The notes below the pieces were generated by a model. That model did not search any database. It had not been told where the DNA came from and worked only from the letters and a program-made list of their open reading frames with translations. From the UHGV virus genome UHGV-2083606: DNA of 50,236 nucleotides; one strand, written 5' to 3'. Shown piece by piece: positions 5,259 to 49,426 of the stretch (position 1 is its first letter; the number at the start of each line of letters is the position of its first letter). Source of the stretch: a virus. Position numbers and translations under genes: made by a program.

Positions 5259-5314
5259 TTCCTACCTCCTGCCTTTTATCAACATCTATGCAACATTTGT
5301 TTTATTTATTTGTT

Positions 5315-5995
5315 TTAGATTTCCCAATCATCATCTTCGTCATCCTCTACTTCTTCTGCTTCGGACTCTGCATCAGCGGCTTTCAGAAGTTTAACATATG
5401 CATCTGCTTTCTGTTTTGGTTTTGTTTTAATGCCACGTTCTTTACACATTTTGAAAAGTTCCATTGCTGTTTTACCCTCATATGGGTCTTTCTCTTCTTC
5501 GTCCTCTGTATCCCAGTCATCATCTTCAACAACTGGCTCTGCTTTCTTTGCTTTGCCTTTAGAGGCTTTCTTTGTTTCTTTCTTAGGCTCTTCCTCGTCA
5601 AGCTCGCCTCTGTCAAACTTTTCAAGGAGTTCAATCAGTGCATCTTTCTTTCTTGATTTACACTTAGAAGAGATTCCTCTTGCACAACAGAGTTTGTAAA
5701 GGTTTGCACCTGTCATATCAGTGTAGTCAAGTTCATCATCCTCTACTTCTGTTTCAACTTCTTTTGTTTCCTCTTCTACTTCTGTTTCAACTTCCACACC
5801 ATCTTTAAGTCCTGTTTCAAGGACTCTTGCTGTAACCTTTGGAAGTGCTTTAAGAATTACAAGAATCTTATCACCAGCTACCGCTACCTCTCTTGTAAGC
5901 ATTGGATAACGTGAACCAATCTCACAGATGTTTTCTTTGTTCTTTCCCTCAATAATTTCCTTTGCCGCTTCATAGGCTGTCCAATTCTTTGCCAT
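5315..5995 (-). CDS. hypothetical protein with two SAP/Rho-N-like motifs and acidic C-terminal tail
   Basis: Motifs ANLYKLCCARGISSK and AMELFKMCKERGIKTK. Poly-acidic stretches; terminal DDEDDDWEI. Confidence 0.6.
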   Translation of the reverse strand: MAKNWTAYEAAKEIIEGKNKENICEIGSRYPMLTREVAVAGDKILVILKALPKVTARVLETGLKDGVEVETEVEEETKEVETEVEDDELDYTDMTGANLYKLCCARGISSKCKSRKKDALIELLEKFDRGELDEEEPKKETKKASKGKAKKAEPVVEDDDWDTEDEEEKDPYEGKTAMELFKMCKERGIKTKPKQKADAYVKLLKAADAESEAEEVEDDEDDDWEI

Positions 5996-13402: not shown

Positions 13403-13856
13403 GCTCTCTTATATACCTTTCCTTTTTAGCTTTTGCAAGTTTCTTTCTGAACTCTATTTTATCCTCCCTTATGTTCATCTTTGTATCGTTACATTCGCAA
13501 AATTGAATTCTTTTTATATGCTCGGAAATCCATGTACTTTTTACAAGTTTGAATGTTTTGAGATTCTGATTATATAAAAGATATTCATTACCTACTTTTC
13601 CACAATATAGAATTGTATATACATGTTCTTCTGATTTTAATTTGAACAGTGTTCCAATTTCTATTCTGTTGCAGTCACTACATCCCATTGTTTTAAGTTC
13701 ACTGTCCTTTTGAATACTTCCAACAATATAGTCTCTTCTGCTAAACATACATCTATATCTGTATCGGTTTAATATACTTTCTTCTTTTTCCGCTTTATTT
13801 AAGTAGCAACATTCTGCACAACTTATTTTTCTCATGCTTTTAACCACTCCAAACAT
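13383..13856 (-). CDS. hypothetical Cys-rich protein
   Basis: CAECC, CSDCN, FCEC motifs. Confidence 0.5.
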   Translation of the reverse strand: MFGVVKSMRKISCAECCYLNKAEKEESILNRYRYRCMFSRRDYIVGSIQKDSELKTMGCSDCNRIEIGTLFKLKSEEHVYTILYCGKVGNEYLLYNQNLKTFKLVKSTWISEHIKRIQFCECNDTKMNIREDKIEFRKKLAKAKKERYIREHGCNRN

Positions 13857-16517: not shown

Positions 16518-18044
16518 CTACCTCGCCATTAATGTGCTATTATATTTTACTACCCTACTCATATATTTATGTTTGTTAAATTCAAGTGCACCCTGTTCTT
16601 TCAGAATATCAATCACCCTTGTTGTAACACTTCTTCCTTTGCATCTATCATAGAAATTATCGTAAGACTTGAATACACCCTTTCTGCGCTCTTCCTCAAT
16701 GGTTTCTGCGGCTTTTTCTCCAATGCCCTTAATAATACTCAACCCTTGCTGTATAACGTCCTCTCCATCCATTTTACGCAATGAGGTTTTAGCTGAGTAG
16801 TTTACATGCGGCAACATAACCACAGCACCATCTTTTACCGCAAACTGTGAATACTTAAATATATCTGCATCATTGTCTGCATACTTCATTTTCACATACC
16901 AAAACTGTGTTGGGTAATGTACTTTATAGTACATTTGGTCAATACTAATAAGCGCATACGCTGTGCTATGACCGGCGTTAAACCCATAGATTAGCATTGA
17001 CGCCCATATTGAATTAGTTTGTTCTTTTGTTAATCCCTCTTGCTTGCATCCTCTGTAAAAGTCTTTCTTCATTTGTTCGATAATTGGAACGTATTCTGGT
17101 TTTGTTAAATTCTCCGCTTTCTTCATAATCTTTAACATATCGAAACTCTGCTGTGGTGTTAAGTGTCCAACTTTCTGCGCTACTTCAACTGTTTGCTCTT
17201 GATATAACATTGTTCCATATGTTGCTTTTGTGTATTTGTAATATGGTGTTGTTGTATCCACCTCTCCTGACAACTTATTATGTGCATATGTTTCATGCAT
17301 GTGCAACTGTAATGGTGCTGGTCTGTTTAATGCGTTCACCGCTATGATATCATTAACACAATCACACTGAATCATATCAAGAATCTTTTTAGGTGCTGAC
17401 TTCTCCATCTGAAATATTCCGTCTGTTCTCCCCTCTCTAAATCCCTCTATAACCTCTTTGCTTTCTTCATCTTCTTCTGTTATTGTATGCCCTGTTTTCT
17501 CTCTAAGCTCACGCATTTCCGACATTGTTTTAAGTCCAAGCATGTCAAACTTTACACAATTAATATGCTCTAAATCATCTTTGTCAAAACAACTGCTTAA
17601 TGCTCCTGTCTTTCTATCTCTCATAATAATACAAGTATAATCACTTATATCTGTTCCAACCACAGCAACCCCAGCCGCATGTTTTCCAAGATACTTTATT
17701 TTACCGTAAAGTTTTGAGAAATGTTTTATAATGTTATCATACTTTCCGTTAAATTCTTCTGTTCTGTATCCATTCAATAAGTTACTCATGTTCAGTTCAT
17801 CATCTACTATAAATCCCTTAATATATGACTTAATTTCAGCAATAACCTTTTTGTTTTCATCTGCTTCAAACCAATCAACATCTTTTGTTGTTTTTAATTT
17901 GCAAACACTTGCCAAATCATTCACAAGATTATCAACTCCATACATCCCATAAGAACAAATCTGTATTGCTTTGTTTGGATATTTGTTTATAACATAATCA
18001 ATTACTTCCTGTCTCCTATCTCGTTCGAAATCTAAGTCAATATC
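16518..18044 (-). CDS. dnaE: DNA polymerase III alpha (DnaE-type) exon 2
   Basis: Frame open upstream of the annotated ATG back to 18044. Encodes DIDLDFERDRRQEVIDYV...GKHAAGVAVVG...FDMLGLKTMS, which are the DnaE palm and finger motifs. Confidence 0.8.
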   Translation of the reverse strand, partial: DIDLDFERDRRQEVIDYVINKYPNKAIQICSYGMYGVDNLVNDLASVCKLKTTKDVDWFEADENKKVIAEIKSYIKGFIVDDELNMSNLLNGYRTEEFNGKYDNIIKHFSKLYGKIKYLGKHAAGVAVVGTDISDYTCIIMRDRKTGALSSCFDKDDLEHINCVKFDMLGLKTMSEMRELREKTGHTITEEDEESKEVIEGFREGRTDGIFQMEKSAPKKILDMIQCDCVNDIIAVNALNRPAPLQLHMHETYAHNKLSGEVDTTTPYYKYTKATYGTMLYQEQTVEVAQKVGHLTPQQSFDMLKIMKKAENLTKPEYVPIIEQMKKDFYRGCKQEGLTKEQTNSIWASMLIYGFNAGHSTAYALISIDQMYYKVHYPTQFWYVKMKYADNDADIFKYSQFAVKDGAVVMLPHVNYSAKTSLRKMDGEDVIQQGLSIIKGIGEKAAETIEEERRKGVFKSYDNFYDRCKGRSVTTRVIDILKEQGALEFNKHKYMSRVVKYNSTLMAR

Positions 18045-18387
18045 CTACCTTAGTCGTTCGTTTCCAAACTATCAAAGCTAGACTATATCTTCCACTACTG
18101 TGGCATTCGCACTTCGGAATGGTGCTTATCTCCATCCCTACACTTGTTACTCTCTTCACAAACTAGTCGTTACACCTTCATATACTACTGTATATGCTTG
18201 GCACGGTATTCCCTCTATCTCACCTTCACTGGTTTAGGGTTTCTTAGTCAGATTATTCGTCTATGGTCTATGCCCTATTATCCTGTTGTAACATTTCAAT
18301 AAGGAGTCTTATTTTTCTGATACCGTTAGCATATTATAATAATACACACCATTAAGCAATGTTCACGAATGATGCCCAATTAAGTTT
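18045..18387 (-). ncRNA. group I self-splicing intron (no ORF) interrupting dnaE
   Basis: 343 nt with higher GC and many stops in all frames. The 5' splice site lies after U; the intron ends in G. Internal guide sequence GGGCA can pair with exon UGCCU, giving a U.G wobble at the splice site. R-like element UCUGACUAAG and S-like element AAGAUAUAGUCUA are present (P7 GACUA/UAGUC). The exons join in frame to give ...KKSLP|DIDLDF. Confidence 0.7.
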
Positions 18388-19581
18388 AGGCAATGACTTC
18401 TTTTCCTTTCTCATAAATCTACTAAAATCTAGGTTATATTTTATGCTGTCTACTTCTGTGATTCCTACTGCATAAGCTACAAGACAATTACAAACAGAAC
18501 CTCTTCCCTTTCCTGTTTCAATTCCATTTTCTTTCGCCCATGTTATATAATCTCTAACAATAAGAAAATAATCTGCAAAACCATGGTAATTAATTACTTC
18601 CAATTCTTCTTTACATCTTTTCCAATATTCCTTATTCCATTTGTTTCTGTTTTTCAATCCCTGTTTTGTTAATGTTTCAAGTTGTTTTGCTCCATTATCT
18701 GATATCTTAGGAAGTTCTAATTCTAAACCATCTAGTATGTTATCTTCTACTTTATTATATATTTCTTTCATGTTATCTGCAAATCGTTCTGCAAGTTCCA
18801 TTGGTCTTTTAAACTTCTTTTTATAGATGTTCGCAAATCGTTCTGTTATCTCATATTCTGTAGGCATGTACCTTTCACTGTATGTTCTTTTTACATCCAA
18901 TGTTGTTTTTCCGATTTCATGCATTTTACAATATGTATCAAAATCTTCTTTGCTTCCAAAATGTGAATCACTTGTTAGAATACATTTTATTTTCTTTCTT
19001 TTTGCCATTCCCATAAGTTCATAGTCTGTCCTTTGCTGTGTACCTTGTGCATCTATCTTATATGGCTGTATTTCAACATATAAATCTTCTCCGAATATTT
19101 CTTTGAATTTATCTAACAAACGTTCTGCTGTGCTTCTATGACCATTTAAAATAGCTTGTGACGTTGCGCTTGCTATACAAGCTGTTGTACATATAAGTCC
19201 ATCTGAATACTTTTCTAACAACTTAAAATCAACTATTGGCTTATAGTAGAATTGTTTTGTGTTTGCTTCTGTCATAATGTGACATAAATTTTTGTATCCT
19301 TGCAAATTCTTCACAAACAAATTCAAATGATAACTCTTTCTTTTTGGATTTTCTTTATTGAATTTTGGTTGGAAATATATTTCGCATCCCATAACTGGTT
19401 TTATTCCAACTTCATTACATGCTTGGTAATGTTTTATAAGTCCACTGATAGAACCATGGTTGCTTATCCCTAATGCTCTATATCCTAATTCTTTTGCATG
19501 TTTTGCTAACTGTTCTGGCTTACCGAATCCATCAAACAATGAATATTCATCGTGTCTATGTAAATCGAAAAAATTTCCCAT
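18388..19581 (-). CDS. dnaE: DNA polymerase III alpha (DnaE-type) exon 1 (PHP domain)
   Basis: FDLHRHDEYSLFDG PHP motif and ADYFLIVRDYITWAKENGIETGKGRGS. Ends ...LDFSRFMRKEKKSLP; the last 11 codons of the track ORF are intron-encoded. Confidence 0.8.
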
Positions 19582-46966: not shown

Positions 46967-48325
46967 CTAACCATGCTTACTGTTTGTCTTTATTTGCTTA
47001 ATATCGGCTACTGTATACTGGTCTAACGCATACCATAAGGCACTAAACGTGTGCGGGTCGATATTAAATTCATCATATATTACATTTCCATTTGCATCTT
47101 TCGCATATGTCAAATCTTTCAATTCCTTTATTGTATTCCTACACTTAGGTGAACAAACAATCTTTTTAAAACGTTTCATCTTCTTTGTGTTCTGTAACCT
47201 ACTTCCTACATACTTTTTACAAGCATACATATTAAAACCCTCTTGCCTGTAATACTGTATAGCTTTTGGCTCTGCTGAATCCGCAAATATTGGTTTCTTA
47301 CACCTCTCAGCTCTTTGCTTTGTTTTCTTTACTCCATCCAACAGAATGAATTTGTTATCTGTTATATGATTTCTATATACTTCATCATAGATATATAGTA
47401 TTTTGTTTTTGTCATCTACTGCACAACTTATCAATGCATTATAGCTTGTTTCAAAGCCAAAGTCCAAACCAAAGAAATGATATTTGCTTGGTATGTTTGC
47501 TATTGTGTTTGTAAATTGTTTTGCGTCCTTTGCAATCGTAAACTGTGGTAATACTCTTGTTCCACTTGCTCCAAATCTTCCCCACCTTGCTACTGCCCAT
47601 AAGTGTGGGTCATTAATCTTTAATCCATCAAGACGCTTTATATATGATGCTGGCAAGAATGGATTATCGTCTGCAATACTATGATGATAATATACTCCAT
47701 TCTTTTTGTTTACTAGTGTTCTTCTTTTGTATATCTCCTGTTCTTCCTGTATTACGTGTTCTTTTCCTTTATCATCTGTATGAACAAAAAATGTATTGTA
47801 TACCCAGTTCTCTTTCCCTACTGGGTTTGTTGTCATAATAAAGTGTAGTGACATCTTAGGCTCTCTAATGCGTCCTAGAAGCTCTGTATAAGCATCATAA
47901 CGTATTTCACTGCACTCTTCCATCCAAACAATAGATACACCATGTATGGACTTTATCTTCTCTACATTGTCCATTCCTCTAAATATAATTCTGCTACCAT
48001 TTGAAAATCTTACTTCCATTGGTGACATAACCGCTACAGCCTTTCCATTCTTAGGCAAGTGCTGATTAGGTAACGATTCATCACTTAACATGTTCATCTT
48101 TTCTAGTATTTCTTTGAATAATGCAAAACATGACTCTTTTATTGTTCCATATACCTGTCTTACAACAAGACAGGTTCTTCTTTCTTCTAATAGTTTTAAT
48201 ATGATTTTAAGTGCTACATGGTAACTCTTACCACTACCATATCCACCAAATAAAAGGTATTGTTCATAATTCCAATCTGTTAAAAAAGTGGAGAACCTTT
48301 TCGAAACATCAATATTAACATCCAT
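46967..48325 (-). CDS. terminase large subunit
   Basis: Walker A GGYGSGKS, Walker B VWMEE, C-terminal nuclease domain (GLDFGFETS, ADSAEP). Confidence 0.9.
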   Translation of the reverse strand: MDVNIDVSKRFSTFLTDWNYEQYLLFGGYGSGKSYHVALKIILKLLEERRTCLVVRQVYGTIKESCFALFKEILEKMNMLSDESLPNQHLPKNGKAVAVMSPMEVRFSNGSRIIFRGMDNVEKIKSIHGVSIVWMEECSEIRYDAYTELLGRIREPKMSLHFIMTTNPVGKENWVYNTFFVHTDDKGKEHVIQEEQEIYKRRTLVNKKNGVYYHHSIADDNPFLPASYIKRLDGLKINDPHLWAVARWGRFGASGTRVLPQFTIAKDAKQFTNTIANIPSKYHFFGLDFGFETSYNALISCAVDDKNKILYIYDEVYRNHITDNKFILLDGVKKTKQRAERCKKPIFADSAEPKAIQYYRQEGFNMYACKKYVGSRLQNTKKMKRFKKIVCSPKCRNTIKELKDLTYAKDANGNVIYDEFNIDPHTFSALWYALDQYTVADIKQIKTNSKHG

Positions 48326-49030: not shown

Positions 49031-49103
49031 TGGAGCATGTGGGACTCGAACCTACAACTTACCGCTTATGAGGCGGTTGCTCTAACCATTGAACTAATGC
49101 TCC
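49031..49103 (-). tRNA. tRNA-Met: tRNA with CAU anticodon (Met, or Ile2 if lysidine-modified)
   Basis: Manual fold: 7-bp acceptor GGAGCAT/ATGCTCC, D-arm GTTC/GAGC, anticodon stem ACCGC/GCGGT with loop CTCATAA, T-arm with GGTTCGAGTCC. No encoded CCA. Confidence 0.75.
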
Positions 49104-49190: not shown

Positions 49191-49262
49191 ACTGCCTAGG
49201 TTGGATTCGAACCAACGAATGCAGGAGTCAAATTCCTGTGCCTTTCCACTTGGCTACTAGGC
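49191..49262 (-). tRNA. tRNA-Gln: tRNA-Gln (UUG)
   Basis: Manual fold: perfect 7-bp acceptor, anticodon stem CAGGA/TCCTG with loop ATTTGAC, T-arm GTTGG-TTCGAAT-CCAAC. Confidence 0.7.
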
Positions 49263-49426
49263 AATGTTATTGTTTTCATTACGGCAATAATTGCTCACAA
49301 TAACTTTTATGAAAGAAATAATTTTAAGTTGTGTTTTAATGACTTTAACACCTGTCAAACTTTTCAGCAAGTTCCTTTGATATTTTGAAATCACTTCATT
49401 TGTCTCTGTTCTGATTCTGTATGTTT

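Follow-up and report, generated by a model that had tools for sequence, protein, structure and literature searches.

In phages, group I introns are textbook features of polymerase, ribonucleotide reductase and terminase genes, and introns without an open reading frame (ORF) as well as collaborative homing are already known (PMC3984707). Among the described systems, the closest to the locus studied here is the intron in gene 31 of the Bacillus phage SPO1, which encodes the endonuclease I-HmuI and is given as a published self-splicing intron in the reference list of PMC3984707 and in PMC3428280. The td intron of phage T4, which is of subgroup IA2 and encodes the GIY-YIG endonuclease I-TevI, offers a second comparison. 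Closer still in host gene are the introns in the DnaE genes of Enterococcus phages EF1 and EF5, Bacillus phage G and Clostridium phages CS266P1-4 in GenBank, all of which carry an HNH endonuclease ORF.

Our subject is a 343-nt insert in a DnaE-type polymerase gene of the virus genome UHGV-2083606, whose stretch of 50,236 nt is called the window below. We conclude that this insert (18387 to 18045, minus strand) is very probably a group I intron of the SPO1 type in the gene of a DnaE-type replicative polymerase, and that it would splice to give one polymerase of 906 aa.

Like the SPO1 intron, the one in the window has no P2 between P1 and P3 and sits in a replicative polymerase gene, the polymerase being of family A in SPO1 and DnaE in the window. 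By direct reading, the SPO1 sequence follows the layout of the window: CCCAG (P3), UGAAC, a hairpin, GGUGU, a hairpin, GCUAAC and P4 come in this order, then P6 as GCC-AAG-[P6a]-AA-GGU, GCAAC-GACUA, P7.1, GUA and P7.2, and at the 3' end GAAGCG-CUGGG (P3'), P8 and AAGAUAUAGUC. The two introns differ in P5, which is short in SPO1 and has in the window an extension of roughly 65 nt together with a J5/4 hairpin. They also differ in the location of the ORF, which is in the P8 loop in SPO1 and in the P6a loop in the relatives of the window's intron, while the window has none; the endonuclease of these relatives is homologous to I-HmuI. The T4 td intron is collinear with the window in its 3' half (UAACGACUA, P7.1, GUA, P7.2, P3', P8 and GAGAUAUAGUCU) and its P4/P6 junction resembles that of the window (CCGUGCYAA). 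In td, by contrast, a P2 hairpin precedes P3 on the 5' side and J3/4 follows P3 directly; td differs further in its endonuclease, in its host gene and in giving no match to our model of the 5' segment (R2, described below). The DnaE introns from GenBank belong to the window's own family. They lie at the same site, between ...LP and D[IV]D..., and have the P1 guide of the window, whereas the copy in the window is ORF-less.

Results

The interrupted polymerase gene

The DnaE-type polymerase gene lies on the minus strand and is split between 18388 and 18387 and again between 18045 and 18044 (Table 1). The first-pass annotation, which was made from the sequence alone, had read both sides of the insert in the way that we find them. 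The upstream ORF (19581..18352) codes for a PHP domain and for the first part of the catalytic domain of Pol III alpha; its polymerase part ends in ...RFMRKEKKSLP, with ...AAG TCA TTG CCT for the last four residues (K S L P), and is followed by 11 further codons (KLNWASFVNIA) and a stop. The frame of the downstream ORF is open upstream as far as 18044, where it reads DIDLDFERDRRQEVIDYV and begins with GAT ATT GAC (D I D). The Pfam domain DNA_pol3_alpha (PF07733) passes from one piece into the other: the upstream piece matches profile positions 2-102, and the downstream piece continues with 103-260. The conceptually spliced protein of 906 aa aligns without a gap across the junction with Taq Pol III alpha (2HPI), ...KKSLP and DIDLDF... 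standing against ...RVSMPDIDTDF.... Counted from this alignment, the two aspartates at the junction are Taq D463 and D465, which we take to be the catalytic pair. The insertion point is between the Pro codon and the first Asp codon of the PDIDxDF motif, and the predicted ligated junction is GTCATTGCCT joined to GATATTGACTTAG (...CCU joined to GAU...). In the downstream ORF translation could start in frame no earlier than at the ATG at 17945, which lies 33 codons beyond the junction; between 18044 and 17945 there is no ATG, GTG or TTG in that frame. Because no such start lies between these positions, the C-terminal piece made from an unspliced transcript would lack the DID motif, and splicing appears to be needed for the downstream product to contain it.

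As had been proposed, the insert is unlike its flanks in composition, with a GC content of 0.382, while the neighbouring stretches of 343 nt on either side have 0.29-0.31. The earlier statement that all frames are closed is right for the sense strand, where each frame has 9-12 stops, and wrong for the antisense strand, which has open stretches of up to 82 codons. On the plus strand, opposite the intron, two short ORFs of 45 and 52 aa were called mechanically at 18100-18302 of the window, and nothing supports their status as genes. Within the 343 nt no terminator was found, and promoter-like sites are below the chance expectation.

Intron-less alleles

A search of IMG/VR with the ligated peptide returned alleles that have no insert. 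One of them (L125) encodes the predicted junction peptide without interruption at 100% identity, three others (L126, L127 and L173) have an uninterrupted DnaE with a 98% match to the junction peptide, and dozens more match at 68-84%. The intron-less DNA reads ...TTGCCG followed directly by GATATC... exactly where the window has ...TTGCCT, the 343 nt and GATATT..., and the intron-less alleles of sister phages have …TTGCCN and GATAT… contiguous at the predicted junction. Since these alleles are contiguous exactly at that point, the boundaries of the insert are proven, and they are exact to the base. Removal of the intron restores the host frame exactly, by comparison with the four alleles (L125-L127 and L173), with the Pfam profile (position 102 passing to 103) and with 2HPI.

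We also compared the exon bases near the junction (18373-18403 and 18030-18044 of the window). The same four intron-less alleles show 13-40% differences from the window exons within 15 nt of the insertion site, and about 2-9% differences beyond 100 nt. Position -1 is changed in every intron-less allele (CCT to CCG or CCA) with the peptide still 98-100% identical, and the intron-bearing alleles have 0-1 differences in the exon stretch near the junction. The divergence of the junction flanks in the intron-less alleles could come from a constraint imposed by P1 and P10, from co-conversion or from resistance of the homing site to the endonuclease.

Predicted fold of the intron

The features of the gene and of the fold are collected in Table 1.

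Table 1. Positions of the exons and of the predicted structural elements of the intron in the window
Feature	Coordinates	Strand	Remarks
DnaE exon 1	18388..19581	minus	PHP domain and first 102 profile positions of DNA_pol3_alpha
DnaE exon 2	16518..18044	minus	rest of palm, fingers, HhH; stop codon included
Group I intron (predicted)	18045..18387	minus	343 nt, ORF-less, SPO1-type, assigned to IA2
P1	18373..18392	minus	exon UGCCU (18392-18388) and intron AA (18387-18386) / UU-GGGCA (18379-18373)
P3 5' strand CAUUCG	18366..18371	minus	at least 13 compensated variants
Hairpin A, P3-P4 interval	18350..18361	minus	CAUU-GCUU-AAUG; loop UGCUUA complements P7.2 loop UAAGCA
Hairpin B, P3-P4 interval	18329..18347	minus	GUGUAUUA-UUA-UAAUAUGC; 100% paired, 4/6 pairs compensated
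P4 5' strand ACGGUAU	18320..18326	minus	J3/4 UA just before; invariant; RF00028 alignment of SPO1 homologue agrees
P5, extension and J5/4	18243..18319	minus	CAGA 18319-18316 / UCUG 18252-18249
J5/4 hairpin	18211..18239	minus	CCCU...AGGG, inner ACC/GGU
P4 3' strand AUACCGU	18203..18209	minus	comparative fold
P6 and P6a	18174..18202	minus	P6 GCC/GGU, internal loop AAG/AA; P6a CAUAUAC-AGU-AGUAUAUG (18196-18179)
J6/7 GUAAC and P7 5' strand	18164..18173	minus	GACUA 18168-18164
P7.1 / GUA linker / P7.2	18163-18142 / 18141-18139 / 18138-18116	minus	IA2 signature
J7.2/3 GAAGUG and P3 3' strand CGAAUG (18109-18104)	18104..18115	minus	pseudoknot: P3 and P7 interleaved
P8 CCAC-AGUA-GUGG	18092..18103	minus	3'-half comparison
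J8/7 AAGAUA and P7 3' strand UAGUC-U	18080..18091	minus	S element of the first-pass annotation
P9 and terminal G at 18045	18045..18077	minus	CUUU/AAGG around GUUUG-GAAA-CGAAC

The elements at the splice sites are those that had been named before. An exon U (U18388) precedes the 5' splice site, the guide GGGCA lies 11 nt into the intron (intron positions 11-15; 18377-18373) and is complementary to exon UGCCU, and the intron ends in G18045. The 5' splice site is marked by a U18388·G18377 wobble with the internal guide, as in group I introns, and G18045 is in the place of the 3'-terminal guanosine (omega G). All 24 distinct DnaE-resident members have the -1 U, and the intron ends in G in all of those whose 3' end is resolved. 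P1 shows a compensatory change in L001 (UACCU/GGGUA). The P10 pairing of the window is weak and amounts, by eye, to about 3 bp.

The core has the P3-P8 and P4-P6 domains of a group I intron, the P3/P7 pseudoknot, a P7 with a bulge and a J8/7 of the AAGAUA type. The extension of P5 includes the pairing CCUUAUU/AAUAGGG (18304-18298 and 18279-18273). In P7 a sixth pair, A18170-U18080, spans the bulged C18169. The guanosine-binding helix of other group I introns likewise has a pair across a bulge, and by analogy G18168-C18081 would be the pair that binds guanosine. Introns of subgroup IA2 are recognised by P7.1 and P7.2 linked by G-U-A, an exonic U-G in P1 and a 3'-terminal G (PMC3428280). As far as these sequence features go, the intron of the window is of subgroup IA2 by that criterion.

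Part of the earlier structural reading has to be revised. The S element was correctly recognised: AAGAUAUAGUCUA near the 3' end makes up J8/7 and the 3' strand of P7. The R-like element of the first-pass annotation is indeed present as a sequence (UCUGACUAAG, 18252-18243), but it is the 3' strand of P5 with J5/4 and not a strand of P7. It co-varies with the 5' strand of P5 (AAAG/CUUU versus CAGA/UCUG), and the two elements do not form P7 together as had been claimed, the version found in L002 and L030, CUUUCUAAG, being unable to pair with UAGUC. The real 5' strand of P7 is an invariant GACUA (18168-18164) within GUAACGACUAG, and we assign it because of the alignment with T4 td and the co-varying sixth pair across the bulge. 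A first hand model that used the earlier R element, with ACGGUAU/AUACCGU as P3, was dropped: L002 has no GACUA there, and GUAACGACUA is invariant. A UAAGAC/GUUA pairing in the P5 extension was rejected as well; it would form a pseudoknot with CCUUAUU/AAUAGGG, its 5' strand is invariant and its 3' strand is often mismatched.

The loop of hairpin A (18358-18353) is complementary to the loop of P7.2 (18131-18126) in the window, and cognate loops co-vary across the family (ACUCA/UGAGU, GCUCA/UGAGC, GUUCA/UGAAC and UACCA/UGGUA among others). In a permutation test that counted Watson-Crick pairs only and was restricted to the loops, the Watson-Crick runs had a mean of 4.56 nt in cognate and 3.32 nt in non-cognate combinations, and 0 of 5000 permutations reached the observed sum. 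A looser test, with G·U allowed and wide regions, was not discriminating (5.5 vs 4.9). We regard the two loops as a candidate tertiary kissing contact. A literature search for a name of the P3-P4 hairpins ('P3.1') gave nothing relevant.

Covariation support

The fold was examined in alignments of 18 diverse compact members (full fold) and of 34 members (3' half). From the 18 members RNAalifold recovers de novo P3, hairpin B, P4, P5, the J5/4 hairpin, P6 and P7.2. In the full hand model P7 and P3 form a pseudoknot, and for the controls the 3' partners were slid by 1-3 columns. In this model 86.4% of cells are paired, compared with 34-41% in the slid controls, and the covariation score is 0.411, compared with at most 0.10. 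Both sides change in 52 of the 75 pairs, and none of 500 shuffles reaches the observed values. The 3' half is 94.9% paired in the 34 members with a covariation score of 0.701.

P3 is always formed by the 6-mer before UGAAC and the 6-mer after GAAGUG, beside P8, and occurs in at least 13 fully compensated versions. Pairing reaches 97-98% in P7.1 and P7.2, and every pair of these two helices shows changes on both of its sides. Across its one-nucleotide bulge P7 gains a sixth pair. Of 108 distinct halves, 102 have a standard pair there, and all four Watson-Crick types occur; two control pairings gave 11/108 and 27/108. P4 and the five GACUA/UAGUC pairs of P7 are invariant, and as they never vary they give no covariation evidence. 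The folding energy of the single sequence is no better than that of shuffles (z -0.64).

Covariance models and proven introns

Half-models were built for the family, R1 from the 3' half with the window included, R2 from the 5' segment, and R3 from 21 members in non-DnaE host genes only. R1 scores 72.6 bits on the window and finds the T4 td core with 51.1 bits (E 2.5e-8), over the full span of the model and with P7, P7.1, P7.2 and P8 in register. R3 scores 56.6 bits (E 4e-10) on the window at 18174..18078 (minus strand) and 49.5 bits (E 1.4e-8) on the td core, and has no match in the intron-less allele L125. Since R3, without any DnaE sequences, finds the site at this E-value and the intron-less alleles prove the boundaries, the insert is beyond chance. 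The sole match of R2 outside the window is a marginal one in SPO1 (L223 902-983, 16.6 bits, E 0.05). R1 has no match on SPO1, because the ORF of SPO1 sits in the P8 loop. The partial Rfam alignment of SPO1 agrees with the assignments of P4, P6 and P7.

Weak half-model matches at 47946-48038, 1373-1446 and 13607-13682 (E >= 0.095) were rejected as noise; the one at 47946-48038 (minus strand, 17-18 bits, E 0.1-0.2) has many broken pairs and lies inside an uninterrupted 452-aa ORF (46967..48325). Near the end of the window are genes for tRNA-Met (CAT) and tRNA-Gln (TTG), on the minus strand at 49031-49103 and 49191-49264.

A scan with the Rfam model RF00028 (Intron_gpI) had been suggested as a check, and the lack of a covariance-model hit as a refutation. 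This model gives no match in the window, even when the local region is scanned at E<=10, and gathering and permissive scans gave no Intron_gpI match in the window or in five related loci. The refutation is unsound: the controls, T4 td (L204, 40.3 bits) and SPO1 gene 31 (L223, 25.4 bits), also fall below the gathering score of 50. Because these two score below 50, the silence of RF00028 does not discriminate for phage IA introns, and the miss is a limit of the model, not of the sequence.

The intron family and its endonuclease

At least 119 IMG/VR contigs contain the core motif GCTAACGGTAWMAGNNNAATAAGAC, and the genes that host it there are many and varied. It is also present in 18 species-representative genomes, which belong mostly to gut Clostridia and other Bacillota and include none of the classic Bacillus introns that have been studied by experiment. 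In GenBank the DnaE insert of EF1 is annotated 'Phage intron', and the endonuclease of phage G is named only 'homing endonuclease'. In CS266P1-4 (L001 and L003; OP172775-8) the halves of DnaE are hypothetical proteins and the intron is unannotated, the only named ORF being 'DNA endonuclease I-HmuI'. EF1 (L002, MF001358) has a second group I 3' core at 5285-5418 (R3 43.2 bits, E 3e-7), about 2 kb downstream of the DnaE intron and between or within hypothetical genes. Enterocloster phage CB473P3 (L005, OP172757) has a family member at about 2450-2980 in a different, unannotated gene context. It has a typical 5' half and about 270 nt between the P3' strand and AAGAUAUAGUC, apparently in the P8 loop, and this insertion may be a decayed ORF.

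A series of alleles from sister phages comes from IMG/VR (L006-L016, L088, L105, L125-L127 and L173, nearly all from metagenome 3300045988). Eight sister phages carry the intron with a full 161-aa HNH ORF (823-824 nt). In L088 the intron is 656 nt long; an in-frame deletion has removed the HNH core, and the 105-aa ORF has no Pfam hit. Five introns, that of the window included, are ORF-less (343-344 nt), and several intron-less alleles are also present. All four stages of the homing cycle, as well as the homing-site divergence of the intron-less alleles, can be seen in essentially one metagenome.

Pfam places the 161-aa protein in HNH_3, and I-HmuI (PDB 1U3E) is a homologue at E 4e-15. The ORF of this protein occupies the position where the window has a P6a hairpin of 7 bp with a 3-nt loop. 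The longest ORF with a Met start there is 3 aa, so the earlier statement that there is no homing endonuclease ORF is correct, and the endonuclease ORF by which a mobile group I intron is recognised is absent from this intron. Among the ORF-less variants P6a, P7.1 and P7.2 have changed in ways that preserve the pairs, a pattern that suggests selection on structure.

Alternative explanations

The insert might be a decayed group I relic that no longer splices, in which case this copy of DnaE would be a pseudogene or the phage defective. Such a relic could well have lost its endonuclease ORF, have a short P10 and be passed over by RF00028, all of which we see here. However, every core helix is intact and scores like those of the relatives (R1 72.6 and R3 56.6 bits), and the five ORF-less and eight endonuclease-bearing variants keep their pairing through compensatory or wobble changes. 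Additionally, the -1 U and the flanking exon bases are conserved in the intron-bearing alleles only, as expected under selection on P1, and both exons have intact frames and full domain matches. We consider a relic unlikely.

A genuinely split polymerase, in which two polypeptides assemble and the insert is an intergenic spacer, is very improbable, even though gene callers give two ORFs and the GenBank relatives are annotated as two proteins. With the first downstream start 33 codons past the junction, the DID motif (Taq D463/D465) would stay untranslated. The lack of a terminator and the scarcity of promoter-like sites in the insert speak against separate expression, the intron-less alleles encode one continuous protein, and the covariation of a ribozyme is not expected of a spacer.

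DnaE genes that are split with an endonuclease gene between their halves do exist (PMC2677866), and the relatives studied here have such an endonuclease, so that one could think of a 'fractured gene' rejoined at the protein level by split inteins. The split inteins of DnaE need 88-105 residues on the N side and a C-terminal part (PMC2677866), while here exon 1 has only 11 non-polymerase codons after it and exon 2 has none before it. Intein halves are thus missing at the break, Pfam finds polymerase domains only, and we give this explanation practically no weight. Another kind of insertion (a group II intron, an IStron, a MITE or an IS remnant) would account for the absence of the insert from sister alleles and is of equally negligible probability, as an ORF-less insert of 343 nt falls far short of the size of a group II intron, the ends AAACUUAAUU...CUAAGGUAG have no terminal inverted repeat, the flanks ...TTGCCT and GATATT... 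show no target duplication, and the fold is that of group I.

Discussion

The boundaries of the insert, its fold, its family and the intron-less and endonuclease-bearing alleles are shown by the comparisons above; from established group I chemistry we infer the catalytic activity of the intron, and any mobility is putative. The pre-mRNA would fold so that exon UGCCU pairs with the guide GGGCA in P1, the U·G marking the point of cleavage. P7 would bind a free guanosine at G18168-C18081, beside the bulged C18169, and this guanosine would then attack after U18388, and the terminal G18045 would take over the guanosine site of P7. Ligation of the exons to ...CCU and GAU... would restore one polymerase of 906 aa. 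The intron cannot home by itself because it has no endonuclease gene. The I-HmuI-like HNH endonuclease of the sister phages could plausibly mobilise the ORF-less intron in trans.

A broader proposal, tentative and rather doubtful, is that introns of the SPO1-type layout (no P2, two hairpins between P3 and J3/4 of which the first kisses the loop of P7.2, and in many cases an extended P5) could form a subclass of their own, very abundant in gut phages, that the present Rfam model is unable to see. In the phage population of the window the ORF-less form might then be more than debris: it might persist through mobilisation in trans by the I-HmuI-like nickase of co-infecting sister phages, or because it protects the polymerase allele from that enzyme.

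This class of intron is already known, and the DnaE insert of EF1 already carries a label; what is new is an ORF-less member with good comparative support. For biology there is little new in kind, group I introns of phage polymerase genes being classical. The practical consequences concern annotation. Scans based on RF00028 will detect too few phage IA introns and miss the intron family of the window, and the two split or 'hypothetical' polymerase ORFs in the phage of the window and in CS266P1-4 are to be read as one gene. The endonuclease-bearing, endonuclease-decayed, ORF-less and intron-less alleles also provide a natural series, located beside the active-site motif of a polymerase, in which the homing cycle can be studied.
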